In this document: positions 2,246 to 31,252 of the stretch, piece by piece
How positions within the stretch are numbered: position 1 is the stretch's first letter
Layout of the letters: each line of letters opens with the position of its first letter
IMG/VR virus record: IMGVR_UViG_3300032272_000001
Coordinates: 103,273 to 167,272 of that record
Reading direction: 5' to 3' (one strand)
DNA: 64,000 nucleotides
DNA from: a virus
Lineage: Duplodnaviria > Heunggongvirae > Uroviricota > Caudoviricetes
The notes under the pieces: model-generated
What the model was told of the DNA's origin: nothing
Seen by the model: the letters and a program-made list of their open reading frames with translations, nothing else
Database searches by the model: none
Translations under genes and position numbers: made by a program

Positions 2246-3169
2246 ATGAAACAAGGAGACTATATGGTAGATTTTAAAGCCATGAAAGCCAATCGACAAA
2301 ATAGATTGGAATCACTAAAACAAGAGCTTGCCAATGCAGGCAAGAAAAAGACGTTCCAGAATGAAGATAATGATCCAACATTTTGGAAATTAGAAGTAGA
2401 TAAAGCAGGGAATGGTTTTGCTGTTATTAGATTTCTTGATAGCGACAAAGAAATTCCTTATGTTACGTATTGGGACCATGGGTTTAAGGGTCCAGGTGGT
2501 TATTATATTGAAAAATCACTTACTTCTATTGGGTTGCCAGATCCCGTTGCAGATTTAAATTCTAAATTATGGAAGTCTGGCGACAAAGACACAGCAAGAG
2601 CGCAGAAGCGTAGATTGCATCATGTGTCAAATATCTTAGTCATTAAGGATTCTAAAAATCCTGATAATGAAGGTAAAGTCTTCAAATTCAAGTATGGTGT
2701 GAAAATCATGGAAAAGCTCAATGAAGCTATGATGCCACCATTTGATGAAGAAGGTCGTTCCCCTGATGATGAAGATTATGATCCAGTGAATGCATTCAAT
2801 CCATTCTGTATTTGGAATGGTGCTGCACTAAAATTGGCCGCCCGCAAGGTCAAGGATTTCCGTAACTATGACTCTTCGGAATTTCAAAAACAGTCTCCAT
2901 TGGCCGCCTCGGAAGAGGAAATGGAAGAAATTATGTCTCAGACATACGATCTGGACGAAATTCTAGATCCTTCTAACTTCAAAACAAGAGAAGAGTTAGA
3001 AGCAAGACTGAACAAGATTTTGGGTAATGAGGTTGTTCAAAATAGTGCTGATAGGGAAACCAAAGAAGCACCATCAAGAAAAACCAAAGAATCGACAAAA
3101 ACATCTATTGATGAAGATGAAGATGAAATTGACCTAGATGCATTAATTGGTTCAATTGAATCTGAATAA
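2246..3169 (+). CDS. 32: gp32-like single-stranded DNA-binding protein (start more likely at 2264, which has an aaggaga RBS)
   Basis: Matches T4 gp32 as I recall it: AGNGFAVIRFL..., HGFK, KVFKFKYGVKIMEKLNEAM and an acidic C-terminal tail (DEDEDEIDLD). It lacks the Zn-binding Cys residues of T4 gp32. Confidence 0.8.
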   Translation: MKQGDYMVDFKAMKANRQNRLESLKQELANAGKKKTFQNEDNDPTFWKLEVDKAGNGFAVIRFLDSDKEIPYVTYWDHGFKGPGGYYIEKSLTSIGLPDPVADLNSKLWKSGDKDTARAQKRRLHHVSNILVIKDSKNPDNEGKVFKFKYGVKIMEKLNEAMMPPFDEEGRSPDDEDYDPVNAFNPFCIWNGAALKLAARKVKDFRNYDSSEFQKQSPLAASEEEMEEIMSQTYDLDEILDPSNFKTREELEARLNKILGNEVVQNSADRETKEAPSRKTKESTKTSIDEDEDEIDLDALIGSIESE

Positions 3170-6696: not shown

Positions 6697-7014
6697 TTAT
6701 GCGGTTAGATGATTGGTAGTAACCAAAACAACGCGTTCAAAACCATCATGAACTATAATTGAAAAATTAGTATATGTTTTTACCCAACAAACACGAAGAT
6801 CTTCTGTACCGATATCTGTTAGATTTGGATCATATCTAATTTTAGCAATACGATATGCTTCGGTATAATTTTCATCTATAACAGCTTGAGCTATATCACC
6901 ATCAAGACACATTCCAGGTATATCGTCACGTGTAGACCATCCAATACCATATCCAGGAGAATATACAATAGCTGTATAACCATTTTTAATTAACTTATTC
7001 ATTTTTTCCTTCAC
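6697..7014 (-). CDS. hypothetical protein
   Basis: 105 aa. Confidence 0.5.
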   Translation of the reverse strand: MKEKMNKLIKNGYTAIVYSPGYGIGWSTRDDIPGMCLDGDIAQAVIDENYTEAYRIAKIRYDPNLTDIGTEDLRVCWVKTYTNFSIIVHDGFERVVLVTTNHLTA

Positions 7015-7751
7015 TTAATTACTTTATTTAATTCTTGTAATGTTCTAATAATGATTAAAGTTTCATCACCTAATTTAGTACCACCTCTTGTCCTAGTCCA
7101 ATGTTCAATTGCTTCTGGGACTGTGAAATACCTGCAACCAGCAATGATTCTATCAATACCATCTTTATCAGGTACAAGAATAAATTCATATCTATCTGAT
7201 CTTTTAATTTGTGGAAACGGTTTTGATACTCTTACATCACCAGATACTACAGCATTACCAGATACTAGAGCATTACCATATACTCTAGCATAGCCAAATA
7301 CTTTAGCATTATCATATACTTTTGCATCCCCATATACTCCAGCATTATCACATACTACAGCATTATCACATACTTTAGCATTACCATATACTACAGCATC
7401 ATCAAATACTTCAGCATCACCAAATACTTGAGCATTGCCAGCTACTACAGCATTATCATATACTCTAGCATCACCATATACTAGAGCATCACCAGATACT
7501 TCAGTATCATCATATACTTGAGCATCACCAAATACTTCAGCATCATCATATACTCTTGTATTACCAAATACTCTAGCATCGCCATATACTCTAGCATCGC
7601 CATATACTCTTGCATTACCAAATACTTTAGCATTATCACATACTTTAGCATTAGGTCCAATATAAGCAGTATCTTCTACATATGCAGTATCTGCAACAAG
7701 ACCACCACCATTGGTATGTTTATGAAATCCTGACATTGTGTGTTCCTTCAC
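7011..7751 (-). CDS. Hexapeptide-repeat family paralog (246 aa) with conserved C-terminal domain
   Basis: N-term MSGFHKHTNGGGLVADTAYV, about 25 V-x-[GD]-[ND]-A-x repeats, C-term SKPFPQIKRSDRYEFILVPDKDGIDRIIAGCRYFTVPEAIEHWT. Confidence 0.75.
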   Translation of the reverse strand: MKEHTMSGFHKHTNGGGLVADTAYVEDTAYIGPNAKVCDNAKVFGNARVYGDARVYGDARVFGNTRVYDDAEVFGDAQVYDDTEVSGDALVYGDARVYDNAVVAGNAQVFGDAEVFDDAVVYGNAKVCDNAVVCDNAGVYGDAKVYDNAKVFGYARVYGNALVSGNAVVSGDVRVSKPFPQIKRSDRYEFILVPDKDGIDRIIAGCRYFTVPEAIEHWTRTRGGTKLGDETLIIIRTLQELNKVIK

Positions 7752-8254
7752 TTAATTACTTTATTTAATTCTTGTAATGTTCTAATAATGATTAAAGTCT
7801 CATTGCATAAACTAGTTCCATATCTTGTTTTTGTCCAATGTTCAATTGCTTCTTCGATACTAAAATACCTGCAACCAACAATGATTCTATCAATACCATT
7901 TTTATCTGGCACAAGAATAAATTCATATCTATCTGATCTTTTAATTTGTGGAAATGGTTTTGATACTCTTGCATCACCATATACTAGAGCATTACCAGAT
8001 ACTACAGCATTATCATATACTTTTGCATCACCATATACTTCAGCATCATCATATACTCTTGCATAACCAAATACTTGAGCATTACCAGATACATGAGCAT
8101 TACCATATACGCTAGCATCACCAGACACTTTAGCATAACCAGACACTTTAGCATTAGGTCCAATATAAGCAGTATCTGCAACAGTTGCAGTATCTGCAAC
8201 AAGACCACCACCATTGGAGTGTCTATGAAATCCTGACATATTATTTTCCTTCAC
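7748..8254 (-). CDS. Hexapeptide-repeat family paralog (168 aa)
   Basis: Same N- and C-terminal modules with fewer repeats. Start overlaps the upstream stop. Confidence 0.75.
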   Translation of the reverse strand: MKENNMSGFHRHSNGGGLVADTATVADTAYIGPNAKVSGYAKVSGDASVYGNAHVSGNAQVFGYARVYDDAEVYGDAKVYDNAVVSGNALVYGDARVSKPFPQIKRSDRYEFILVPDKNGIDRIIVGCRYFSIEEAIEHWTKTRYGTSLCNETLIIIRTLQELNKVIK

Positions 8255-8742
8255 TTAATTTCTTTATTTAATTCTTGTAATGTTCTAATAATTTTTAAGG
8301 TTTCGGTTCCTAGTTTAGTTCCGTATCTTGTTTTTGTCCAATGTTCAATTGCTTCTGGGACTGTAAAGTATCTGCAACCAGCAATTATTCTATCAATACC
8401 ATCTTTATCTGGTACAAGAATAAAATCATATCCATCTGATCTTTTAATTTGTGGAAACGGTTTTGATACTTTAACATCACCATATACACTTACATCACCA
8501 GATACTTTAACATGACCAGATACTCTAGCATTACCATATACATGAGCATTACCAGATATTACAGCTTTACCAAATACTTTAGCATAACCAAATACTAGAG
8601 CATTACCATATACTCTTGCATTACCAAATACTTTAGCATAACCAAATACTTTAGCATCTGGTCCAATAAAAGCAGTATCTTCTACATATGCAGTATCTGC
8701 AACAAGACCACCACCATTGATATGTTTATGAAATCCTGACAT
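8251..8742 (-). CDS. Hexapeptide-repeat family paralog (163 aa)
   Basis: Same architecture. Confidence 0.75.
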   Translation of the reverse strand: MSGFHKHINGGGLVADTAYVEDTAFIGPDAKVFGYAKVFGNARVYGNALVFGYAKVFGKAVISGNAHVYGNARVSGHVKVSGDVSVYGDVKVSKPFPQIKRSDGYDFILVPDKDGIDRIIAGCRYFTVPEAIEHWTKTRYGTKLGTETLKIIRTLQELNKEIK

Positions 8743-8914: not shown

Positions 8915-9293
8915 GACTACTCCAAACATAATCAGAGACAATAAATCCATAAAATTCAAAATCATCACCAACTTCTTTATATTCATTTATTGTTGCAATA
9001 CCATATGGAATTATTGCAAATTGACATGGCATATCATATAATGACATAAATTCTTTTCCATTAAAATTATCCATAAAAACAAATTCCCCAATCAGATCAT
9101 AATTATGATCCAACCTAAGATTTGTTACTGTTGCACAACGAGTATCATATTGACTAATTGTTTCGAAATAGATAAACAAATTATTATTAATAATCTTATC
9201 ATAAACATCAAAACCAAGAAAATGGTTCTTTCGATAGATTAAACCACCAGTTGTGGAAGATGGTTTATTCAACTCAATTTTAAATTTAGTCAT
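8907..9293 (-). CDS. hypothetical protein
   Basis: 128 aa. Confidence 0.5.
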   Translation of the reverse strand: MTKFKIELNKPSSTTGGLIYRKNHFLGFDVYDKIINNNLFIYFETISQYDTRCATVTNLRLDHNYDLIGEFVFMDNFNGKEFMSLYDMPCQFAIIPYGIATINEYKEVGDDFEFYGFIVSDYVWSSHE

Positions 9294-9480
9294 ATTATTT
9301 CTCCATTAATGTGGTTGATTTGAGTAGGAGTCGAACCTACAATAATCTCATTACGTCGCGCTGTTTGAGATACAGTAGGTTTCACCATGAGCGCGGAAAC
9401 TATTGATTTCGCAATAATCCCATCCATATCGGCTTAGCCCACACTGCTATTTACCAATTTCAGCATCAAATCATATTTAA

Positions 9481-10236
9481 TTATTTTTCCTTAAAATGTG
9501 CTTCTACCATATCCAACCATAATAGAGATTGTTGAGATAATTTAGATCCATCTCCACGCCTATGATTAGTCCAATATTTCCTAGCTTCTAAAATATTTTT
9601 TACTACACAACCAGCATATATTTTAATACCATCATCATTTTTCTGTGCAATATGCTGATAACCGTCTGTTCGTGTCATAATAGGACCAATATTTGTACGA
9701 TAATTACCATCCAAATCATTAAATTTTGTTGATTTTAAATCAGCATTATTAAAATTAGCACTACTTAAATAACAGAAGTTAAATACACAATTCCTCAGAT
9801 CACAATCACTAAAATTAGTTTTGTACATTCCAACATCTATGAATCTACTATCCGAAAAAGAACTACCAGTAAAATCAATAAAATCTAAACACTTATACTT
9901 AAATTTACAATTAAAAAAAATACATTTTTGTGAATTCTGATCAAAAATAATATCAGACAAATCTTTATTAACAAATTCAAGCTGTTGACCTTTAGTATTA
10001 TCATCAAGCCATAGTAGATGTTTTTTGTATTTCTTATCGTATTTCTTCTGAGTAATCTTTTTCATGTTATAATCCTTGGTAACTTCGTAGTAATTTCGTA
10101 GTAACTGAGTAATCTTTTTCATGTTATAATCCTTGGTAATTTCGTAGTAACTTCGTAGTAACTTCGTAGTAACTTCGTAGTAACTTCGTATGTGTTGTAT
10201 TAAACCTAGTGTATATGGATATGCGCGTGTGGTCAA
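9481..10236 (-). CDS. Pentapeptide-repeat protein fused to the same C-terminal domain as the hexapeptide family; its N-terminal region carries internal tandem repeats
   Basis: Central A(D/N)(L/F)xx repeats (CKFKY KCLDF IDFTG SSFSD SRFID ... NADLK STKFN). C-term RTDGYQHIAQKNDDGIKIYAGCVV..EARKYWTNHRRGDGSKL aligns with the family's C-terminal domain. N-terminal start is uncertain. Confidence 0.6.
   Translation of the reverse strand: MTTRAYPYTLGLIQHIRSYYEVTTKLLRSYYEITKDYNMKKITQLLRNYYEVTKDYNMKKITQKKYDKKYKKHLLWLDDNTKGQQLEFVNKDLSDIIFDQNSQKCIFFNCKFKYKCLDFIDFTGSSFSDSRFIDVGMYKTNFSDCDLRNCVFNFCYLSSANFNNADLKSTKFNDLDGNYRTNIGPIMTRTDGYQHIAQKNDDGIKIYAGCVVKNILEARKYWTNHRRGDGSKLSQQSLLWLDMVEAHFKEK
10046..10200. 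repeat. Tandem DNA repeats (about 56-bp duplication plus 10-bp unit cttcgtagta x5) inside the 5' end of the pentapeptide-protein gene
   Basis: gtaatctttttcatgttataatccttggtaa occurs twice; acttcgtagta is iterated. Confidence 0.7.
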
Positions 10237-10237
10237 G

Positions 10238-10327
10238 AAAAAAAAATAAAAAAAAATTACATAGAGACAAGGCTTCTATAGCAGTAGTATAAAAAATAAA
10301 AAAAAATTACATAGAGACAAGGCTTCT
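10238..10327. repeat. Direct repeat (A-rich, about 38 bp x2: aaaaaaataaaaaaaaattacatagagacaaggcttct)
   Basis: Two copies at 10238..10277 and 10291..10327. Confidence 0.65.
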
Positions 10328-10442
10328 TCAATAACATCCCTAGCATAGTTGTATATAAAAGGGGGGGTGTCTTTTTTGCAACACTGTTACCTAAATGTTA
10401 CGTTACCCAAATGCCACAGTTGCTTATATACAACATAGTGTG

Positions 10443-10512
10443 GTGTGGCAATTAAGCCACACCTTTTTGTATTACCAAATACTCTTGCATGTGTGTGACA
10501 ATTAAGTCACAC
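10443..10512. promoter_or_regulatory. Pair of near-identical hairpins sharing the loop AATTAA (gtgtggc-aattaa-gccacac and gtgtgac-aattaa-gtcacac)
   Basis: Stems of 7 bp at 10443..10462 and 10493..10512 in a non-coding gap. The loop resembles the gcAATTgc core of the terminators at 3844 and 33808. Confidence 0.45.
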
Positions 10513-10669
10513 GTATTAAGCCCGGAGAATCCGTCTAATTTCGGCCTTAATTTCTTTATTGCTTGGCTCGCGGCCAAGCCTTGCCGCCAGTTTGTTCCAA
10601 ATTGTTTCGGGGTTATTATTCGTAACCGTGAAATTGACTTGCATTGGATTCATTCCTTATAGTGAGGGT

Positions 10670-10981
10670 TTAAGACAAAGTGATATATTTCCAATCTATC
10701 GCTTTTGATATGTCAGTATCATAGCCAAATATTTCATTTTTGAGGAAATTGAATACTTTATCCTTTTCCCCAATAATATGGTTATAAGTGACTCTTGATG
10801 TTTTTTCAGTTCCCCAATATTCATGTGTCACACGAACATAAAAACCAGCTTTTAGTAGCTTTTTAGTAAAGCGCTCGGCAATCGGCGCAAAAATGTCATA
10901 GCTTGAAAGGTGGATCGTGGTTTCAATCATCAAAGAAGAAGACATAACAGAAGCTCGCTTGTTTGTGTTTCGTCTAACCAT
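10670..10981 (-). CDS. hypothetical early protein
   Basis: 103 aa; preceded by a minus-strand promoter module at 10985..11010. Confidence 0.5.
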   Translation of the reverse strand: MVRRNTNKRASVMSSSLMIETTIHLSSYDIFAPIAERFTKKLLKAGFYVRVTHEYWGTEKTSRVTYNHIIGEKDKVFNFLKNEIFGYDTDISKAIDWKYITLS

Positions 10982-10984
10982 GAA

Positions 10985-11010
10985 TATAAACGAATCTAGC
11001 CTAGAGTCAA
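10985..11010 (-). promoter_or_regulatory. Early sigma70-like promoter module on the minus strand (TTGACT-N16-TTATAT)
   Basis: Reverse complement of agtcaa at 11005..11010 with an AT-rich -10. Confidence 0.45.
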
Positions 11011-11180
11011 CTACACAACCACTGTTTAAAGGTTTTTATTGAAAAATTATCATCGCCCCACACACAATCAATGAACAGTGTGTAGCGATCCCATAGCTTA
11101 TCAGGTGCATCTTGGTGCATGTTCCTTTGGCCTGCTATAAATCGCCTTCTGGCGGCTTCTGTATGGGCTGGAATAGTCAT
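11007..11180 (-). CDS. hypothetical small protein (57 aa, missing from the ORF track because it is under 60 aa)
   Basis: Manual translation MTIPAHTEAARRRFIAGQRNMHQDAPDKLWDRYTLFIDCVWGDDNFSIKTFKQWLCS. Confidence 0.3.
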   Translation of the reverse strand: MTIPAHTEAARRRFIAGQRNMHQDAPDKLWDRYTLFIDCVWGDDNFSIKTFKQWLCS

Positions 11181-11234
11181 ATTAAACCTTTAGAATGATG
11201 AGAGTGTGGTTGTTTGTTACTAATGCCGATAACC

Positions 11235-12508: not shown

Positions 12509-13018
12509 TTACCGACAGCTATAGATTAGGCGATCGCCCCCAATCGTTGTTTCGATATAATCACAACTCAAATCAGCCGCAATCGCGTCATAATCGATAT
12601 AATTGGCTAAATGTTCTGGAATATCGCCGAATAGACCATTATCAACCAATTCCTCTGCAAGATCGCGCATACTAGAGCAATGATAGATATCAACTTCAAA
12701 ATCTGATTCAGGATCAACCGAATCAGCATCAAAAGGATAGGAACACTCGCCAACCGCAATAATAAAGATGGTTTTCTCATGATCGGACCATGATACCTCA
12801 CAGTCAATATATTTTTCGATATTGGCCTGATTAATGCCCCATGCTTCCGACAATTCACAATCAATGGTTTCGCCGTCAATAAAATCAATTTCAAATTCTT
12901 CCACCTTGTCGCCATGGCTATTCCGCGCTTTGGACGCCTTTTCTGTGTATTCTTCGAACGTTTCGAAGTAGAATCCAGTGGCAGAAATATCATAAGGATT
13001 TGCGAAAAATTTGGACAT
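12509..13018 (-). CDS. Acidic protein, putative ArdA-like antirestriction (DNA-mimic) protein
   Basis: 169 aa and very acidic. C-terminal NYIDYDAIAADLSCDYIETTIGGDRLIY resembles the ArdA C-terminal motif (nY.DyeA.arDL...) as I recall it. Not verified by search. Confidence 0.4.
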   Translation of the reverse strand: MSKFFANPYDISATGFYFETFEEYTEKASKARNSHGDKVEEFEIDFIDGETIDCELSEAWGINQANIEKYIDCEVSWSDHEKTIFIIAVGECSYPFDADSVDPESDFEVDIYHCSSMRDLAEELVDNGLFGDIPEHLANYIDYDAIAADLSCDYIETTIGGDRLIYSCR

Positions 13019-15747: not shown

Positions 15748-16168
15748 ATGTCAGAATTTCATAAACACTCCAATGGTGGTGGATTAGTAGAGTCTACTGC
15801 AACAGTATCTGATACTGCTTTTATTGGACCTAATGTTATAGTATGTGATAATGCAAGAGTATCTGGTACTGCTCTAGTATGTGATAATGCAAGAGTATCT
15901 GATGATGTTCTAGTATTTGGTGATGCAAGAGTATCTGATGATATTAAAGTATATGATAATGCTATAGTATCTGATGATGTTCTAGTATTTGGTGATGCAA
16001 GAGTATCTGGTCATGCAAAAGTATTTGGTGATGCTAAAGTAGCTGGCTATGCTATAGTATGATAATGCAAGAGTATCTATTGGACAGAAACGAGATATGG
16101 AACTAAATTAGGTGATGAAACACTTGAAATTATTTCTATGCTACAGAAATTAAAGTCAATTATGGATT
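15748..16168 (+). pseudogene. Decayed hexapeptide-family copy: intact N-terminus and 104 codons, then in-frame TGA TAA, then the last 26 codons of the C-terminal domain in the same frame (an internal deletion)
   Basis: gtatgataatgc here versus gtatgtgataatgc in intact copies (2-bp loss). The segment encoding SKPFP...EAIEH is missing and the sequence resumes at YWTETRYGTKLGDETLEIISMLQKLKSIMD*. Confidence 0.6.
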
Positions 16169-16225: not shown

Positions 16226-16897
16226 ATGACAAAATTTCATAGACACTCCAATGGTGGTGGTCTTGTTGCAGATACTGCAAGAGTATCTGATACTGCTTTT
16301 ATTGGACCTAATGCAAGAGTATTTGGTAATGCTGAAGTATATGGTAATGCTATAGTATTTGGTAATGCTGTAATATCTGGTGATGCTGTAGTATATGGTA
16401 ATGCTAAAGTGTCTGGTAATGCTAGAGTATACAACAATGCTAAAGTATCTGATGATGCTAGAGTATACAGCAATGCTAAAGTATATGGTAATGCTAGAGT
16501 ATGTGATAATGCTGTAGTATGTGATAATGCTATAGTATCTGGTGATGCAAGAGTATATGGTGATGCAAGAGTATTTGATAATGCTGTAGTATGTGATAAT
16601 GCTTCAGTATCTGATGATGCTATAGTATGTGATCATGCAAGAGTATTTGGTGATGCAAAAGTATTTGGTGATGCTCTAGTATCAAAACCATTTCCAAAAA
16701 TCACCAGATCAGATAGATATGATTTTATTCTTGTGCCAGATAAAGATGGAGTCGATAGAATCATTGCTGGTTGCAGGTATTTTAGTATCGAAGAAGCAAT
16801 TGAACATTGGACAGAAACAAGAGGTGGAACTAAACTAGGAACCGAAACCTTAAAAATTATTGATATGTTACAAGAATTAAAGTCAATTATTGATTGA
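16226..16897 (+). CDS. Hexapeptide-repeat family paralog (223 aa)
   Basis: Conserved N/C modules and about 21 repeats. Confidence 0.75.
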   Translation: MTKFHRHSNGGGLVADTARVSDTAFIGPNARVFGNAEVYGNAIVFGNAVISGDAVVYGNAKVSGNARVYNNAKVSDDARVYSNAKVYGNARVCDNAVVCDNAIVSGDARVYGDARVFDNAVVCDNASVSDDAIVCDHARVFGDAKVFGDALVSKPFPKITRSDRYDFILVPDKDGVDRIIAGCRYFSIEEAIEHWTETRGGTKLGTETLKIIDMLQELKSIID

Positions 16898-16951: not shown

Positions 16952-17533
16952 ATGTCAGAATTTCATAGACACTCCAATGGTGGTGGATTAGTAGAGTCTA
17001 CTGCTAGTGTTGCTGATACTGCTTATATTGGACCTAATGCTGTAGTAGCTGGTAATGCTGTAGTAGAGGGCAATGCTATAGTAGATGGCAATGCTAAAGT
17101 ATTTGATAATGCTAGAGTAACTGGTCATGCTCTAGTATCTGGTAATGCTCAAATATTTGGTAATGCTCAATTATATGGTTATGCTATGGTATATGGTGAT
17201 GCTAAAGTATTTGATAAGGTTATAGTATCTGGTACTGCAAGAGTATTTGGTGATGCTGAAGTATATGATAATGCTGTAGTATCTGGTGATGCTGTAGTAT
17301 CTGGTGATGCTCTAGTATCAAAACCGTTTCCAAAAATTACTAGATCAGATGGATATGATTTTATTCTTGTACCAGATAAAGATGGTATTGATGTAATAAT
17401 TGCTGGTTGCAGATACTTTAGTATCGAAGAAGCAATTGAACATTGGACAGAAACAAGATATGGAACTAAATTAGGTGATGAAACTATGTTGATTATTGAA
17501 ACATTGCAGAAATTAAAGTCAATTATGGATTGA
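16952..17533 (+). CDS. Hexapeptide-repeat family paralog (193 aa)
   Basis: Same architecture. Confidence 0.75.
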   Translation: MSEFHRHSNGGGLVESTASVADTAYIGPNAVVAGNAVVEGNAIVDGNAKVFDNARVTGHALVSGNAQIFGNAQLYGYAMVYGDAKVFDKVIVSGTARVFGDAEVYDNAVVSGDAVVSGDALVSKPFPKITRSDGYDFILVPDKDGIDVIIAGCRYFSIEEAIEHWTETRYGTKLGDETMLIIETLQKLKSIMD

Positions 17534-17585: not shown

Positions 17586-18221
17586 ATGTCAGGATTTCAT
17601 AGACATCCAAATGGTGGTGGTCTAGTAGAGTCTACTGCATATGTAGAAGATACTGCTTTTATTGGACCAGATGCTAGAGTAACTGGTGATGCTGAAGTAA
17701 CTGGTAATGCTCAAGTATTTGGTAATGCAAGAGTATCTGGTAATGCTAAAGTATTTGATAAGGTTATGGTATATGGTCATGCTTTAGTATCTGGTAATGC
17801 TATGGTATATGGTCATGCTTTAGTATCTGGTAATGCTATGATATCTGATAATGCTGAAGTATTTGATGATGCTAGAGTATATGGCTATGCTCATGTATTT
17901 GGTAATGCTCAAATATTTGGTAATGCTGTAATATTTGGTAATGTAAAAGTAGCTGGTAAAGCTGTAATATCTGGTAATGCAAGAGTATATGGTAATGCTG
18001 TAGTATCAAAACCATTTCCACGCATTCCTAGATCAGATGGATATGATTTTATTCTTGTACCTGATAAAGATGGTATTGATAGAATCATTGCTGGATGTAG
18101 ATATTTCACAGTCCCAGAAGCAATTGAACATTGGACAGAAACGAGATATGGAACCAAATTAGGAAGCGAGACTATGTTGATTATTGAAACATTGCAGAAA
18201 TTAAAGTCAATTATTGATTGA
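17586..18221 (+). CDS. Hexapeptide-repeat family paralog (211 aa)
   Basis: Same architecture. Confidence 0.75.
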   Translation: MSGFHRHPNGGGLVESTAYVEDTAFIGPDARVTGDAEVTGNAQVFGNARVSGNAKVFDKVMVYGHALVSGNAMVYGHALVSGNAMISDNAEVFDDARVYGYAHVFGNAQIFGNAVIFGNVKVAGKAVISGNARVYGNAVVSKPFPRIPRSDGYDFILVPDKDGIDRIIAGCRYFTVPEAIEHWTETRYGTKLGSETMLIIETLQKLKSIID

Positions 18222-18521: not shown

Positions 18522-19103
18522 ATGTCAGAATTTCATAAACATCCTAATGGTGGTGGATTAGTAGAGTCTACTGCAACAGTATCTGATACTGCTTATATTG
18601 GTCCTAATGCTGTAGTAGCTGGTAATGCTGCGGTACTTGGTAATGCTATAGTATCTAATAATGCTATAGTATCTAATAATGCAAGAGTATCTAATAATGC
18701 TCAAGTATATGGCGATGCTAAAGTGTCTGGTAATGCTCAAGTATTTGATAATGCTGAAGTATATGGTGATGCTCAAGTATTTGATAAGGTTATGGTATAT
18801 GGTACTGCTAGAGTATATGATAATGCTGTAGTATCTGGTAAAGCTGTAATATCTGGTGATGCTGTAGTATCTGGTGATGCTGTAGTATCAAAACCGTTTC
18901 CAAAAATTACTAGATCAGATGGATATGATTTTATTATTGTACCTGATTTATCTGGTAGTGATAGAATCATTGCTGGCTGTAGATATTTTAGTATCGAAGA
19001 AGCAATTGAACATTGGACAGAAACAAGATATGGAACTAAACTAGGCGATGAAACACTTGAAATTATTTCTATGCTACAGAAATTAAAGTCAATTATGGAT
19101 TGA
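18522..19103 (+). CDS. Hexapeptide-repeat family paralog (193 aa)
   Basis: Only a truncated upstream module survives here (ttgacataatATG). Confidence 0.75.
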   Translation: MSEFHKHPNGGGLVESTATVSDTAYIGPNAVVAGNAAVLGNAIVSNNAIVSNNARVSNNAQVYGDAKVSGNAQVFDNAEVYGDAQVFDKVMVYGTARVYDNAVVSGKAVISGDAVVSGDAVVSKPFPKITRSDGYDFIIVPDLSGSDRIIAGCRYFSIEEAIEHWTETRYGTKLGDETLEIISMLQKLKSIMD

Positions 19104-19622: not shown

Positions 19623-20420
19623 ATGTCAGAATTTCATAAACATATCAATGGTGGTGGATTAGTAGAGTCTACTGCAACAGTTGCAGTATCTGCTTATATT
19701 GGACCTAATGCTAAAGTATTTGGTAATGCTAAAGTGTTTGGTTATGCTCTAGTATGTGATTATGCTGTAATATCTGGTGATGCTGTAATATCTGGTTATG
19801 CTAAAGTATATGATAATGCTGTAATATCTGGTGATGCTGTAGTATGTGATAATGCTAGAGTATCTGGCTATGCTCAAATATTTGGTAATGCTCAAGTATA
19901 TGGTAATGCTCTAGCATTTGATAAGGTTATGGTATATGGTGATGCAAGAGTATTTGGTAATGCTCAAGTATATGATGATGCTAGAGTATACAGCAATGCT
20001 AGAGTATCTGGTGATGCAAGAGTATTTGGTGATGCTGTAGTATTTGATAATGCTCTAGTATTTGATAAGGTTATGGTATATGGTACTGCAAGAGTATATG
20101 GTGATGCAAAAGTATATGATAATGCTATAGTAACTGGTAATGCTATAGTAACTGGTAATGCTATAGTATATGGCAATGTTCAAGTATCTGGTGATGCTAG
20201 AGTATCAAAACCATTTCCACAAATTAAAAGATCAGATAGATATGATTTCATTCTTGTGCCAGATAAAAATGGTACTGAAATAATAATTGCTGGTTGCAGA
20301 TACTTTACAGTTCCAGAAGCTATTGAACATTGGACAGAAACAAGAGGTGGAACCAAATTAGGTGATGAGACTATGCTGATTATCGAAACATTGCAGAAAT
20401 TAAAGTCAATTATTGATTGA
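19623..20420 (+). CDS. Hexapeptide-repeat family paralog (265 aa, the longest)
   Basis: About 28 repeats; promoter module at 19567..19594. Confidence 0.75.
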   Translation: MSEFHKHINGGGLVESTATVAVSAYIGPNAKVFGNAKVFGYALVCDYAVISGDAVISGYAKVYDNAVISGDAVVCDNARVSGYAQIFGNAQVYGNALAFDKVMVYGDARVFGNAQVYDDARVYSNARVSGDARVFGDAVVFDNALVFDKVMVYGTARVYGDAKVYDNAIVTGNAIVTGNAIVYGNVQVSGDARVSKPFPQIKRSDRYDFILVPDKNGTEIIIAGCRYFTVPEAIEHWTETRGGTKLGDETMLIIETLQKLKSIID

Positions 20421-22443: not shown

Positions 22444-23025
22444 ATGTCAGAATTTCATAAACACTCCAATGGTGGTGGATTAGTAGAGTCTACTGCAACA
22501 GTATCTGATACTGCTTATATTGGACCTAATGCTAGAGTATCTGGCTATGCTCAAGTATTTGGTAATGCTAGAGTATCTGGTTATGCTAGAGTATTTGGTA
22601 ATGCTCTAGTATTTGGTAATGCTATAGTATCTGATGATGCTGTAGTATCTGGTACTGCTAGAGTATATGGTGATGCTCAAGTATATGATGATGCTATAGT
22701 ATGTGATGATGCAAGAGTATATGGTTATGCTGTAATATCTGGTTGTGCTCAAGTATATGGTAATGCTGTAATATCTGGCAATGCTAGAGTATATGGTGAT
22801 GCAAGAGTATCAAAACCGTTTCCACAAATTAAAAGATCAGATAGCTATGATTTTATTCTTGTACCAGATAAAGATGGTATTGATGTAATAATTGCTGGAT
22901 GTAGATATTTCACAGTCACAGCAGCAATTGGACATTGGACAGAAACAAGAGGTGGAACCAAATTAGGTGATGAAACCTTAAAAATTATTGATATGTTACA
23001 AGAATTAAAGTCAATTATGGATTGA
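22444..23025 (+). CDS. Hexapeptide-repeat family paralog (193 aa)
   Basis: Same architecture; promoter module at about 22387. Confidence 0.75.
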   Translation: MSEFHKHSNGGGLVESTATVSDTAYIGPNARVSGYAQVFGNARVSGYARVFGNALVFGNAIVSDDAVVSGTARVYGDAQVYDDAIVCDDARVYGYAVISGCAQVYGNAVISGNARVYGDARVSKPFPQIKRSDSYDFILVPDKDGIDVIIAGCRYFTVTAAIGHWTETRGGTKLGDETLKIIDMLQELKSIMD

Positions 23026-23080: not shown

Positions 23081-23806
23081 ATGTCAGAATTTCATAACCA
23101 CTCCAATGGTGGTGGTCTTGTTGCAGATACTGCAAGAGTATCTGATACTGCTTATATTGGTCCATCTGCTAGAGTATTTGATAATGCTGTAGTATGTGAT
23201 AATGCTAAAGTATATGGTAATGCTGTAGTATTTGATTATGCTAAAGTATTTGATTATGCTAAAGTATATGGTAATGCTAAAGTATATGGTAATGCTGAAG
23301 TATTTGGTAATGCTCTAGTATGTGGTAATGCTGTAGTATATGGTAATGCTGTAGTATATGATAATGCTCAAGTATGTGATCATGTAAGAGTATCTGGTCA
23401 TGCAAGAGTATATGGTAATGCTGTAGTATACAGCAATGCTGCATTATCTGATAATGCTCTAGTATTTGGTAATGCTCAAGTATGTGATCATGCTAGAGTA
23501 TATGGTAATGCTATAGTATGTGATAATGCAAGAGTATTTGATAATGCAAGAGTATCTGGTAATGCTGTAGTATCTGGTGATGTAAGAGTATCAAAACCAT
23601 TTCCACAAATTAAAAGATCAGATAGATATGATTTTATTCTTGTGCCAGATAAAAATGGAGTCGATAGAATCATTGCTGGTTGCAGGTATTTCACAGTCCC
23701 AGAAGCAATTGGACATTGGACAAAAACAAGATATGGAACTAAATTAGGTGATGAAACACTTGAAATTATTTCTATGCTACAGAAATTAAAGTCAATTATG
23801 GATTGA
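23081..23806 (+). CDS. Hexapeptide-repeat family paralog (241 aa)
   Basis: Same architecture; promoter module at about 23024. Confidence 0.75.
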   Translation: MSEFHNHSNGGGLVADTARVSDTAYIGPSARVFDNAVVCDNAKVYGNAVVFDYAKVFDYAKVYGNAKVYGNAEVFGNALVCGNAVVYGNAVVYDNAQVCDHVRVSGHARVYGNAVVYSNAALSDNALVFGNAQVCDHARVYGNAIVCDNARVFDNARVSGNAVVSGDVRVSKPFPQIKRSDRYDFILVPDKNGVDRIIAGCRYFTVPEAIGHWTKTRYGTKLGDETLEIISMLQKLKSIMD

Positions 23807-27448: not shown

Positions 27449-28192
27449 ATGATAGGATTTCATAAACATCCAAATGGTGGTGGTCTAGTAGAGTCTACTG
27501 CAACTGTTGCAGATACTGCTTTTATTGGACCAGATGCTGTAGTATCTGGTAATGCTCAAGTATATGATAATGCTCAAGTATTTGGTGATGCTCAAGTATT
27601 TGGTGATGCTCTAGTATCTGGTAATGCTAGAGTATCTGGCTATGCTAGAATATATGATACTGCTCTAGTATCTGGTACTGCTCTAGTATCTGGCTATGCT
27701 AGAATATATGGTAATGCTGTAGTATCTGGTACTGCTCTAGTATATGGCAATGCTATAGTATCTAATAATGCAAGAGTGACTGGTGATGCTGTAGTATGTG
27801 GTGATGCTCAAGTATATGATAATGCTCAAGTATCTGGTGATGCTATAGTATATGGTTATGCTCATGTATTTGGTGATGCTAGAGTATCTGGTAATGTAAG
27901 AGTATCTGGTGATGCTCAAGTATTTGGTAATGCTATGGTATTTGGTAATGCTAGAGTAGCTGGTAATGCTGTAGTATCAAAACCATTTCCAAAAATTACT
28001 AGATCAGATAGCTATGATTTTATTCTTGTACCTGATAAAGATGGTATTGATAGAATCATTGCTGGTTGCAGATATTTCACGGTTCCAGAAGCAATTGGAC
28101 ATTGGACTAGGACAAGAGGTGGTACTAAATTAGGAACCGAAACCTTAAAAATTATTGATATGTTACAAGAATTAAAGTCAATTATTGATTGA
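27449..28192 (+). CDS. Hexapeptide-repeat family paralog (247 aa)
   Basis: Same architecture. Confidence 0.75.
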   Translation: MIGFHKHPNGGGLVESTATVADTAFIGPDAVVSGNAQVYDNAQVFGDAQVFGDALVSGNARVSGYARIYDTALVSGTALVSGYARIYGNAVVSGTALVYGNAIVSNNARVTGDAVVCGDAQVYDNAQVSGDAIVYGYAHVFGDARVSGNVRVSGDAQVFGNAMVFGNARVAGNAVVSKPFPKITRSDSYDFILVPDKDGIDRIIAGCRYFTVPEAIGHWTRTRGGTKLGTETLKIIDMLQELKSIID

Positions 28193-28925: not shown

Positions 28926-29006
28926 GGAAGAGATGGCAAATGGGGAGCCCCACAGCTCATAACTGTGTGTTTAAAAACCGAGTTGGTTCGATTCCGACCT
29001 CTTCTA
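28926..29006 (+). tRNA. Probable tRNA-Met/fMet (CAT) with an unusually long (about 14 nt) variable region; CCA encoded
   Basis: Acceptor ggaagag/ctcttct, anticodon arm cacag-ctCATaa-ctgtg, T-arm gttgg-ttcgatt-ccgac, then a-cca. The variable-loop length is atypical. Confidence 0.5.
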
Positions 29007-29013
29007 CCATTAT

Positions 29014-29086
29014 AGTTCCATAGCTCAGCGGAAAGAGCAATTGTCTTCTAAACAATAGGTCGTAGGTTCAAATCCTACTGGAACTA
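29014..29086 (+). tRNA. tRNA-Arg (anticodon TCT); CCA encoded
   Basis: Acceptor agttcca/tggaact, D-arm gctcagcggaaagagc, anticodon arm attgt-ctTCTaa-acaat, T-arm gtagg-ttcaaat-cctac, discriminator a, then cca. Confidence 0.75.
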
Positions 29087-29108
29087 CCAAACAACAAAGG
29101 AACATATC

Positions 29109-29688: not shown

Positions 29689-29785
29689 ATGAAACCAGAA
29701 CCAATTACATTATATGAAGTGTTGTTTTGGATAACATTAATTATTCTTGCTGGTTTATATGCTTTTACAAGAACAGGAACATAAT

Positions 29786-30493
29786 ATGATAGGATTTCAT
29801 AAACATCCAAATGGTGGTGGTCTAGTAGAGTCTACTGCAACTGTTGCAGATACTGCTTTTATTGGACCTAATGCTAGAGTATATGGTAATGCTCAAGTAT
29901 TAGGTTATGCTCAAGTATCTGGCAATGCTAAAGTATTTGATAATGCTAGAGTATTTGATAATGCTGTAATATTTGGTGATGCTCAAGTATGTGATCATGC
30001 AAGAGTATATGGCAATGCTGTAGTACATGGTGATGCTCTAGTATATGTTAATGCTATAGTATGTGATCATGCAAGAGTATCTGGTAATACTCATGTATAT
30101 GGTAATGCTCATGTGTATGATAATGCTGCATTATCTGATAATGCTCTAGTATATGGAAATGCTCAAGTATGTGATAATGCAAGAGTATATGATAATGCTC
30201 AAGTATTTGGTGATGCTATAGTATGTGATAATGCAAGAGTATCTGGTAATGCAAGAGTATATGGTAATGCTGTAGTGTCAAAACCATTTCCAAAAATCAC
30301 TAGATCAGATAGATATGATTTCATTCTTGTACCTGATAAAGATGGTATTGATAGAATCATTGCTGGTTGTAGATATTTTACAGTTCCAGAAGCTATTGAA
30401 CATTGGACAAAAACAAGATATGGAACTAGTTTAGGCAATGAGACTTTAATCATTATTAGAACATTACAAGAATTAAAGTCAATTATGGATTGA
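29786..30493 (+). CDS. Hexapeptide-repeat family paralog (236 aa, counted from the conserved MIGFHKHPNGGG start)
   Basis: The track ORF begins upstream at 29747. The conserved family N-terminus and RBS point to 29786. Confidence 0.75.
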   Translation: MIGFHKHPNGGGLVESTATVADTAFIGPNARVYGNAQVLGYAQVSGNAKVFDNARVFDNAVIFGDAQVCDHARVYGNAVVHGDALVYVNAIVCDHARVSGNTHVYGNAHVYDNAALSDNALVYGNAQVCDNARVYDNAQVFGDAIVCDNARVSGNARVYGNAVVSKPFPKITRSDRYDFILVPDKDGIDRIIAGCRYFTVPEAIEHWTKTRYGTSLGNETLIIIRTLQELKSIMD

Positions 30494-30544: not shown

Positions 30545-31252
30545 ATGACAGAATTTCATAAACATCCTAATGGTGGTGGATTAGTAGAATCTACTGCTAG
30601 TGTTGCTGATACTGCTTTTATTGGAATTAATGCTAGAGTATATGGTAATGCTAGAGTATCTGGTGATGCTATAGTATCTGGCTATGCTCAAATATTTGGT
30701 GATACTAGAGTATATGGTGATGCTAAAGTATGTGATCATGCAAGAGTATATGGAAATGCTAAAGTATGTGATAATGCTATAGTATATGGTCATGCTCATG
30801 TATATGATAATGCTGTAGTATCTGGTTATGCTGTAGTATCTGGTTATGCTCAAGTATCTGATGATGCTCAAGTATTTGGTCATTCTAGCGTATCTGGTAA
30901 TGCTCTAGTATTTGGTCATTCTAGAGTATATGATGATGCAAGAGTATCTGGTACTGCTCTAGTATCTGGTACTGCTCTAGTATATGGTGATGCAAGAGTA
31001 TCTGGTGATGTAAGTGTATATGGTGATGCTAAAGTATCAAAACCGTTTCCACAAATTAAAAGATCAGATGGATATGATTTTATTATTGTACCAGAGTTAT
31101 CAGGTAATGATAGAATAATTGCTGGTTGCAGATATTTCACAGTCCCAGAAGCTATTGAACATTGGACAGAAACAAGAGGTGGAACCAAATTAGGTGATGA
31201 GACTATGCTGATTATCGAAACACTTCAACGAATGAAAGAGATTTATGGATGA
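30545..31252 (+). CDS. Hexapeptide-repeat family paralog (235 aa)
   Basis: Same architecture; C-term ends ...LQRMKEIYG. Promoter module at about 30490. Confidence 0.75.
   Translation: MTEFHKHPNGGGLVESTASVADTAFIGINARVYGNARVSGDAIVSGYAQIFGDTRVYGDAKVCDHARVYGNAKVCDNAIVYGHAHVYDNAVVSGYAVVSGYAQVSDDAQVFGHSSVSGNALVFGHSRVYDDARVSGTALVSGTALVYGDARVSGDVSVYGDAKVSKPFPQIKRSDGYDFIIVPELSGNDRIIAGCRYFTVPEAIEHWTETRGGTKLGDETMLIIETLQRMKEIYG

Follow-up and report, generated by a model that had tools for sequence, protein, structure and literature searches.

The locus described here raises the question of why a phage should carry, beside an array of hexapeptide-repeat genes, one pentapeptide-repeat gene whose product ends in the same C-terminal domain, and whether the repeat solenoid or that domain is the functional part of such a protein. 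Throughout, the window is the whole 64,000-nt stretch that we analysed (positions 103,273 to 167,272 of IMG/VR record IMGVR_UViG_3300032272_000001), whose G+C content is 29-40% across 2-kb segments. The gene lies on the minus strand at 9481..10122, beginning at an ATG at 10122, ending in a stop codon at 9481-9483 and encoding 213 aa; this form is the protein called in ENA/JGI (P0001), with an exact match on ENA contig k141_5634585. The longer ORF at 9481..10236 (-) begins at a TTG at 10236 that is merely the first start codon past the upstream stop and only lengthens the ORF. An alternative in-frame ATG at 10065 gives a form of 194 aa (9481-10065, -), and an AAGGA Shine-Dalgarno sequence precedes both ATGs because a 57-bp tandem duplication has copied the ribosome-binding site, the ATG and the first six codons. 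This duplication belongs to a 5′ repeat region (10048..10201, -) that also holds five to seven copies of an 11-bp unit, TACGAAGTTAC. A 42-nt direct repeat in two copies, an A/T run followed by TTACATAGAGACAAGGCTTCT, lies further 5′ (10236..10327, -), and a putative sigma-70-like element (TTGACC-17-TACACT), a match to the consensus only, is found at 10236-10208 (-). A search of this unusual 5′ intergenic region against Rfam returned no match.

The repeats of the protein are of the classical pentapeptide type. The earlier note had described about 13 of them, and we find 14 consecutive in-register units at aa 48-117 of the 194-aa form (nt 9715-9924), in the order CIFFN, CKFKY, KCLDF, IDFTG, SSFSD, SRFID, VGMYK, TNFSD, CDLRN, CVFNF, CYLSS, ANFNN, ADLKS and TKFND, with F, L or M at the centre and C, S, A, T, V or I at i-2. 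Two more units, KDLSD and IIFDQ (aa 34-43), lie upstream in a shifted register, and the solenoid as delimited by its PF00805 match and by register analysis spans 9715..9966 (-). The score against Pfam PF00805 (E 4.4e-9, 36.2 bits) is above the gathering cutoff of 20.2, as is that against PF13576 (29.6 bits, cutoff 27), while PF13599 stays below its own (36.2, cutoff 38). The repeats probably wind into a pentapeptide-repeat helix of about 3.5-4 coils. In the AF2 model of the full-length protein the solenoid part is of low confidence (pLDDT 46-77), and Foldseek searches with that model retrieved pentapeptide-repeat proteins at a weak level only (NP275, E 0.027, TM 0.23) and nothing in the PDB at E ≤ 0.001. 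The Lys-rich N-terminus, read from the sequence (aa 1-28 of the 194-aa form; 9982..10065, -; net charge +6, pI 9.9), carries an H-L-L-W-L cap motif; H-x-x-W-L ... L is the usual N-terminal motif of pentapeptide-repeat proteins and recurs in P0048, P0068, P0123 and a Listeria phage protein. We note that the presence of this usual pentapeptide-type motif was counted against a swap within this genome. Searched as nucleotide and as protein against 50,697 GenBank phages, the gene found no match, and in a word-indexed search of 5.8 billion proteins its product matched itself only.

Directly after the last repeat begins the C-terminal domain of some 65 residues (aa 124-194; 9484..9696, -), delimited by HMM matches and by an AF2 domain model. 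The claim that one homologous C-terminal module is borne by both solenoid types holds: an HMM built from the C-termini of the 13 hexapeptide copies and searched against the 614 window ORFs of at least 40 aa found the pentapeptide ORF at E 1.1e-7 (27 bits) over 59 of 71 positions, with the runner-up ORF at E 0.06. Against HMMs built without it, the C-terminus of the pentapeptide protein scored 49.7 bits with pentapeptide-associated domains from elsewhere, 44.7 with external hexapeptide-associated domains, 44.3 with stand-alone domains and 30.8 with the window paralogs. The family consensus reads RSDGYxF ... AGCRYFT ... EAxxHW ... TRGGTxLGxE, for which the window pentapeptide copy has R-T-D-G-Y, A-G-C, E-A-x-x-Y-W and R-R-G-D-G-S. 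Of the 22 positions with at least 75% conservation in the family, this copy keeps 13, among them R, D, G, Y, A, G, C, A, W, R, G and L; the nine substitutions are F to H, R to V (AGCR to AGCV), F to K, H to Y (HW to YW), T to R, T to S, G to S, E to Q and I to W (with LGxE becoming LSxQ). Judged from its sequence, it is a divergent member of this domain family.

Modelled alone, the domain is predicted with good confidence (pLDDT 88.7, pTM 0.77) as four strands followed by two helices (E2-8, E14-20, E23-28, E31-34, H35-44, H52-70). A search of BFVD with this model returned phage proteins labelled ‘pentapeptide repeat’ of 213-215 aa (E 7e-6, TM 0.88) as well as phage hexapeptide or beta-solenoid proteins, the TM scores for the C-terminal parts of phage pentapeptide proteins being 0.81-0.88. 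The pentapeptide protein of a P100-like Listeria phage (C-terminus ITGCFQGTLDEL) is similar in fold in BFVD but has no significant sequence match and was left uncounted as a family member. The four-strand-plus-helix folds of the PUR repeat, Whirly, PC4 and SsgA may be among the closest known systems for the domain. No characterised homolog was found through Pfam (E up to 10), NCBIfam, PHROGs or PADLOC, none of which holds a model for the domain, or through PDB sequences or the literature; PADLOC models gave no match at E ≤ 0.01 to six family members, and literature queries on pentapeptides with phage and anti-defence or DNA mimicry, the YdcK solenoid, orf229 and the motif strings found nothing on it. 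The PDB sequence matches of two domain profiles (18 and 50 sequences), to eL39, a choline-binding protein and BMPR1B, were at chance level.

The window holds 13 full hexapeptide (YdcK-type) solenoid copies with the C-terminal domain, just as the earlier note had counted, and besides them one truncated copy of 104 aa that lacks it (15748..16062, +). Three tandem paralogs with the canonical domain (7011-7751, 7748-8254 and 8251-8742, all -) are co-directional with the pentapeptide gene and downstream of it. The remaining full copies are on the plus strand: five at 16226-16897, 16952-17533, 17586-18221, 18522-19103 and 19623-20420, two at 22444-23025 and 23081-23806, one at 27449..28192, and two at 29747-30493 and 30545-31252. 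The number of hexapeptide units among the window paralogs ranges from about 11 to 28. Readings of these paralogs as acyltransferases or bactofilins were rejected, as the scores are under the family cutoffs. Three genes from the pentapeptide gene lies a homolog of the ArdA antirestriction family (12509..13018, -; PF07275, 35.5 bits, cutoff 27), which identifies its surroundings as an early or anti-defence region. We note the early-region context of the pentapeptide gene within the window: a 430-bp intergenic gap precedes it, it is co-oriented with three hexapeptide copies, and ArdA is close by.

Beyond the window, the protein belongs to an uncharacterised family of accessory proteins that is widespread in phages. 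Among 1.84 billion representatives, 972 clusters, counted at 50% identity, contain the domain at E ≤ 1e-3, and 370 do so at E ≤ 1e-10. The earlier note had suggested looking in other phages for the same domain on other scaffolds, and it is there: of 86 scanned, 47 have the domain after pentapeptide, 19 after YdcK-type hexapeptide and 8 after decapeptide repeats, the other partners being GGTIx repeats, CSxCSx repeats and non-repeat N-termini. The pairing of pentapeptide repeats with this domain is common elsewhere and is found in gp016 of the Caulobacter phages RW, RLK, KcrB and GB2A, in EBPR siphovirus 1 gp3 and in A0A6J5NJK4 and A0A6J5RFV7 of uncultured Caudovirales. These proteins are all phage-borne, are annotated only as pentapeptide or hypothetical, and share with the window protein the N-terminal motif, the pentapeptide solenoid and the RSDGY/AGC/HW/TRGGT domain; the window protein is nevertheless a sequence orphan, with a domain identity of at most 40%, a Lys-rich N-terminus, several near-invariant domain residues missing, and repeats that are F/L/C-rich and A/T-biased rather than of their A-D/N-L-S-G type. 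YdcK-type proteins with the same domain include, besides the 13 window paralogs, orf229 of Streptococcus phage Sfi19 and proteins of Javan prophages, Bacillus phages Bp8p and phiAGATE and Lactobacillus phage LfeInf. They resemble the window protein in their homologous domain, early or replication-proximal position and variable repeat number, but differ in having a left-handed-type hexapeptide helix (PF18836/PF00132) where the window protein has a pentapeptide one (PF00805), and in their N-terminal motif, H-x-H-x-N-G-G-G-[LW]-V-x-[DS]-T-A.

The family is associated with phages and lies in early or replication-proximal regions. At 46 IMG/VR loci with the domain, genes resembling those for primase/helicase, SSB, RecT and exonuclease recur as neighbours (identified by eye from sequence or from their records rather than by family searches), and in phage Sfi19 orf229 directly follows cro, ahead of gam, sak4 and helicase genes. 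A contig scan with canonical family members gave 19 loci, mostly in Alphaproteobacteria, and on two phage contigs (L005 and L017) a hexapeptide and a pentapeptide copy lie side by side. Clustering of neighbours over 52 loci identified no obligatory partner gene.

We tentatively favour a reading, plausible if still somewhat short of probable, in which the gene encodes a two-module phage accessory protein that acts early in host takeover or against host defences, its functional part being the C-terminal domain and its solenoid a rod. The first module would be a capped beta-solenoid of interchangeable type and fast-changing length, here a pentapeptide one with the H-x-x-W-L motif, serving as a stiff, length-adjustable rod with which other proteins are blocked or contacted. 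The second would be the domain of about 65 aa, four beta-strands plus two helices, with near-invariant polar residues, namely R-S-D-G-Y (first hairpin), A-G-C-R (third turn), H-W (helix 1) and T-R-G-G-T-x-L-G-x-E (where helix 2 begins); going by the model topology, these residues should cluster at one end of the sheet. The domain would bind a conserved ligand, of which a nucleic acid or another phosphate-bearing molecule may be the likeliest, although generic nucleic-acid binding is not favoured, since the C-terminal domains across the family are not generally basic (median pI about 7). It probably pairs as a tail-to-tail dimer. As several near-universal residues are replaced in the window copy, its ligand specificity may differ from that of the 13 hexapeptide paralogs and, lacking nine of the 22 conserved positions, it may not share the activity of the family. 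From the position of the gene we would expect the protein to be made early in infection. In a bolder form of this two-module reading, possible but to our minds doubtful, activity in a new class of early effectors would reside in the domain, a ligand- or nucleic-acid-binding dimer core with solenoid arms of any repeat type, the arm length being tuned by repeat gain and loss and the gene being amplified into arrays (14 copies here) in large phages engaged in an arms race with host defences.

The suggestion in the earlier note that the solenoid is a scaffold or spacer and the C-terminal domain the functional constant fits what we see across the family, in which length is plastic (11-28 units among the window hexapeptide paralogs) and the domain constant. 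Two family members, L040 and L042, are near-identical but for a 96-aa indel of pure repeats (16 repeats). Solenoids can be as short as about one repeat and as long as 55 repeats in the pentapeptide type or 28 in the hexapeptide type, the domain also stands alone in proteins of 58-90 aa (P0005, P0007, P0012, P0044 and P0062, on contigs of several kb), and about a dozen of its polar or charged residues reach 95-99% conservation whatever the scaffold. These same observations bear on the alternative that the domain is purely structural, capping the open C-terminal edge of the solenoid, mediating dimerisation or both, while the solenoid surface is what functions. Against it, stand-alone domain proteins exist, the domain stays as it is when the solenoid shrinks to one or two repeats, and conservation of so many polar residues over differing cross-sections goes beyond what a cap needs; we therefore think this alternative unlikely.

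Another alternative, taken up from the earlier note, is that the pentapeptide solenoid and the family mimic B-form DNA in the manner of Qnr and MfpA, titrating DNA-binding host enzymes such as gyrase or the nucleases of restriction and defence; the C-terminal domain would then be an effector or dimeriser. The repeats are indeed pentapeptide repeats, an ArdA gene is nearby, and the protein shows a weak likeness to the NCBIfam Qnr and MfpA models that arises from its repeats, but the scores are 21-36 bits against cutoffs of 240-500. In Qnr and MfpA the C-terminal element mediates tail-to-tail dimerisation, as is known for pentapeptide gyrase protectors (PMC10886550), and a pentapeptide protein of a P100-like Listeria phage has been likened to gyrase inhibitors by HHpred (PMC12282133). 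Qnr, MfpA and AlbG, which protect topoisomerases, share with the window protein both the repeats and a C-terminal element after the helix, although theirs is a short helix and not a 65-aa globular domain. The solenoid of MfpA has about 8 coils, roughly twice the length of the one found here. The window protein is basic where those proteins are acidic (pI 8.95, net charge +7), its solenoid has a net charge of only -2 over 95 aa by a simple count of charges, and the solenoid parts across the family have a median net charge of 0. ArdA and Ocr resemble it as early accessory proteins of phages and mobile elements but are of unrelated folds and strongly acidic, the nearby ArdA homolog, which serves as an example of a true mimic in the window, having a net charge of -30 and a pI of 4.05; the Pfam scan found no ArdA match in the pentapeptide protein itself. 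Moreover, solenoids as unlike in geometry as the hexapeptide, decapeptide and GGTIx types carry the same domain, and a DNA-like shape is therefore not a property that the family shares. DNA mimicry is thus unsupported, and we consider it improbable.

It is equally improbable, in our judgement, that the pentapeptide copy now lacks a function, as a paralog that is decaying or evolving neutrally. The substitution of nine of 22 family-conserved positions, among them those in AGCR and HW, the want of any close relative among the billions of proteins searched and the tandem duplications that disturb the 5′ end would all be expected of such a gene. Against this, a frame of 194-213 codons remains intact in DNA of 29-40% G+C, a Shine-Dalgarno sequence is kept at both possible starts, all 14 repeat units stay in one register, the domain still has the invariant R, D, G, Y, A-G-C, W and R, and its AF2 model is confident.

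Lastly, the earlier note had called the gene a domain-swap chimera, which holds in so far as two solenoid types carry one homologous C-terminal domain, but not in the sense of a swap inside this genome. That the 3′ end of a hexapeptide paralog recently recombined here with an unrelated pentapeptide gene is scarcely credible and is contradicted by the sequence comparisons, even though fourteen homologous 3′ modules within one 25-kb stretch offer chances for recombination: the C-terminus of the pentapeptide copy shares only 29-37% identity with the local hexapeptide copies, against about 77% among those copies themselves, it is closer to pentapeptide-associated domains elsewhere than to its neighbours (49.7 against 30.8 bits), and its architecture is frequent in other phages. 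Across the family the C-terminal domains cluster by scaffold type, with a nearest-neighbour concordance of 93% as against 52% when shuffled, and solenoid swaps are therefore old and rare.

The C-terminal module of about 65 residues is a widespread and apparently undescribed phage domain. Phage penta- and hexapeptide proteins are usually annotated by their repeats, as ‘pentapeptide repeat’, ‘acyltransferase’, ‘bactofilin’ or even ‘glycerol kinase’, and some of the pentapeptide proteins are read as Qnr-like resistance genes; in a large set of such proteins the informative part is instead the unannotated C-terminal domain that is common to unrelated solenoid types. Defining this domain would correct many annotations, and caution is called for with Qnr-like ‘quinolone resistance’ labels on phage pentapeptide proteins that carry it. 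With its 65 aa and dozen invariant polar residues, the domain would offer a tractable target for finding the role of a group of common early phage genes, and the family provides a clear natural case of one functional domain carried on interchangeable repeat scaffolds of quickly changing length.

We have found that the pentapeptide-repeat protein encoded on the minus strand at 9481..10122 ends in the same C-terminal module as the hexapeptide-solenoid proteins of the window. The window holds 13 full hexapeptide-solenoid genes whose 71-aa C-termini are near-identical. One further copy is truncated (104 aa; 15748-16062, plus strand): it ends before this domain and lies a short way upstream of the first full copy on that strand. 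When an HMM of the 13 C-termini was run against all 614 window ORFs, the pentapeptide ORF scored 27 bits (E 1.1e-7) and the runner-up had an E-value of 0.06; profiles built without the pentapeptide protein score its module at 44-50 bits. The shared module proposed in an earlier note is therefore real. That note's count of about 13 pentapeptide repeats is also correct, since the protein contains 14 unbroken five-residue units in one register, from CIFFN to TKFND with F, L or M at the centre, and two additional units upstream; its middle portion matches Pfam PF00805 (E 4.4e-9, 36.2 bits against a cutoff of 20.2).

The module is widespread. Searched against 1.84 billion representative proteins, its profile matches 972 clusters at E<=1e-3 and 370 at E<=1e-10. 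We surveyed scaffolds in 86 of the best 150 matches, chosen for their N-terminal extension: 47 carry Pfam Pentapeptide, 19 a YdcK beta-solenoid repeat and 8 a Decapeptide repeat, and the rest include GGTIx repeats, CSxCSx repeats and non-repeat N-termini, so that other scaffolds, which the earlier note had suggested looking for, do exist. Module-only proteins of 58-90 aa also occur. We note that at one locus (L003, 3296-5369) a stand-alone module gene (P0007, 69 aa) begins 23 bp past a gene for a 613-aa protein with matches to Pfam HSDR_N_2, N6_Mtase and Eco57I, and is followed by an HTH gene. Pfam-A (2025), NCBIfam 20, PHROGs v4, PADLOC and the PDB sequence set contain neither a model nor a relative of the module, and a full-text literature search with its motif strings gave no match; neither the shared domain nor its spread over several solenoid classes is described in these sources. 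In a comparison with predicted viral structures, the module comes closest to the C-termini of phage 'pentapeptide repeat' proteins of 213-215 aa (E 7e-6, TM 0.88) and of phage proteins named 'beta solenoid repeat', 'hexapeptide repeat ... transferase-like' and 'polymer-forming cytoskeletal'. The gene thus adds a new and divergent member to a family whose proteins already stand in databases, named after their repeats or as 'hypothetical'. We regard this classification as near certain: the gene encodes a protein of two modules that belongs to a large phage family, with a constant C-terminal domain rich in polar residues, a variable solenoid and an early-region context.

AlphaFold2 modelling of the module alone (18-sequence alignment; pLDDT 88.7, pTM 0.77) gave four antiparallel strands followed by a 10-residue and a 19-residue helix. 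The top conserved motifs across 218 distinct domains, R-S-D-G-Y-x-F, A-G-C-R-x-F-T, E-A-x-x-H-W and T-R-G-G-T-x-L-G-x-E (86-99% each), map in this model to the first and third beta-turns, helix 1 and the beginning of helix 2. The topology would place these residues together at one end of the sheet and thus hints at a binding site rather than a core. Because of three conserved arginines, a Gly-rich turn at the helix start and weak matches to the PUR repeat, Whirly, PC4 and SsgA folds, we propose that the module would bind a conserved ligand, and that this is most likely a nucleic acid or some other molecule bearing phosphate. It may also pair into a dimer, by analogy with these fold relatives and with pentapeptide proteins, which dimerise via their C-termini (PMC10886550), and the solenoid would be a rigid arm whose length can be adjusted. 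The earlier note took the solenoid for a scaffold and the module for the part that stays constant. This is consistent with the stand-alone modules and with a variable repeat number: in the window, paralogs with almost identical modules have about 11 to 28 hexapeptide units, and the pentapeptide members of the family have anywhere from about 2 to about 55 repeats. The IMG/VR proteins encoded at L040 (5803-6207) and L042 (4284-4952; also L044 and L045) are near-identical save for a 96-aa block of 16 hexapeptide repeats, which is direct evidence of rapid repeat gain or loss. Many IMG/VR contigs start or stop within the repeat-coding DNA (for example L010-L012, L014, L016, L019, L025, L028, L039, L043 and L049), probably because assemblies break at repeats or paralogs. 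Classification and mechanism together form our best explanation, which we hold tentatively, the mechanism being its weak part. A module acting purely as a structural cap or dimeriser seems to us unlikely.

It is more doubtful still that the protein is a DNA mimic, as the earlier note had supposed. The protein is basic (pI 8.95, net charge +7), with a near-neutral solenoid (net -2 over 95 residues) and an N-terminal 28 residues of net +6, whereas the ArdA-family antirestriction homolog of the window (12509-13018, minus strand; PF07275, 35.5 bits), three genes upstream, has a pI of 4.05 and a net charge of -30. Across the family the median net charge per residue of the solenoid parts, pentapeptide and hexapeptide alike, is 0, and the Qnr and MfpA models of NCBIfam reach 21-36 bits where their cutoffs lie at 240-500. 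Moreover, the module is found on solenoids of differing cross-sections, so a DNA-like shape cannot be their common property. We consider it just as improbable that the pentapeptide copy is a decaying paralog. This copy is an outlier, carrying substitutions at 9 of 22 conserved positions (among them AGCR to AGCV, HW to YW and LGxE to LSxQ), and neither a protein database search nor the 218-module comparison found a close relative.

A recent chimera, in which the pentapeptide gene and the module recombined within this genome, can practically be set aside: the module shares 29-37% identity with the hexapeptide copies of the window, which share about 77% with one another; it scores 30.8 bits with the local profile versus 49.7 with the external pentapeptide-associated and 44.7 with the external hexapeptide-associated profile; the protein's N-terminal motif KKHLLWLDDNTKGQQLEF is also found in other pentapeptide members (DHELWLEGKGGKCANF in P0123, a family protein, and NHGKWLFNEGGDRADL in a Listeria phage protein); and the layout of pentapeptide repeats plus module is common, including in cultured phages (Caulobacter RW, RLK, KcrB and GB2A gp016; EBPR siphovirus gp3). 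In 93% of cases a module's nearest neighbour sits on a scaffold of its own type, versus 52% with shuffled labels (218 modules). Scaffold exchange in the family has occurred, rarely and long ago.

The ORF at 9481..10236 (minus strand) opens at a TTG that is merely the first start codon past the upstream stop; in-frame ATGs can be read at 10122 and 10065. Both are preceded by AAGGATTATAAC, since the ribosome-binding site (Shine-Dalgarno), the ATG and the first six codons are copied in a tandem duplication of 57 bp; together with 5-7 copies of an 11-bp unit, TACGAAGTTAC, this duplication occupies 10048-10201 (minus strand). Public assemblies call the 213-aa form (P0001), and the 194-aa form is equally plausible. 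Upstream, a 42-nt direct repeat (10236-10327; two copies 50 nt apart, an A/T run then TTACATAGAGACAAGGCTTCT), with no further copies in the window, may be a candidate promoter or regulatory element of the gene. The gene follows an intergenic gap of 430 bp. In it lie two G+C-rich hairpins that resemble each other and have a TTAATT loop (10442-10463 and about 10493-10512), adjoined by a 42-codon ORF (about 10517-10645, minus strand). The hairpin at 10442-10463 is terminator-like on the plus strand; an Rfam search of 9000-11200 gave no match.

The window lies within a 176-kb metagenomic contig (ENA ERZ27251236). Its gp32-type single-strand DNA-binding protein (2246-3169, plus strand) is 44% identical to Prochlorococcus and Synechococcus myophage homologues, so the phage is a distant T4-like myovirus. 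On the same strand, the pentapeptide gene is followed by two small ORFs and three hexapeptide copies; the ten others lie on the opposite strand at 16.2-31.3 kb, amid small ORFs and two tRNA genes (tRNA-Met (CAT) and tRNA-Arg (TCT), 28926-29089, plus strand). Loci L005 (2724-3266, 6454-6963) and L017 (3807-4289, 4415-4762) likewise place a hexapeptide member near a pentapeptide member, the latter with a divergent C-terminal domain, RIRAGCRDF[ST]I..EAR.HWGE. At 46 IMG/VR loci the family genes neighbour primase/helicase-, SSB-, RecT-, exonuclease- and polymerase-like genes (assigned by eye from sequence), with no constant partner across the IMG/VR loci; in Sfi19 the family gene is the first sizeable gene past cro, and of 19 loci sampled from bacterial genomes most are alphaproteobacterial. 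These positions point to a predicted early expression and accessory role. In a P100-like Listeria phage a pentapeptide gene lies within a terminal-repeat operon (PMC12282133). The C-terminus of its product is similar in fold to the module in BFVD, although sequence similarity is not significant, and this domain may be a remote superfamily relative in well-studied phages; in Listeria phage 805405-1 (L070, 2501-2971) it carries the motif ITGCFQGTLDEL.

A role in host takeover or counter-defence would be consistent with the 14 copies, the variation in repeat number and the nearby antirestriction gene. The pentapeptide gene is neither a unique chimera nor evidence of nucleic-acid mimicry; its module is a domain family that merits definition and testing.
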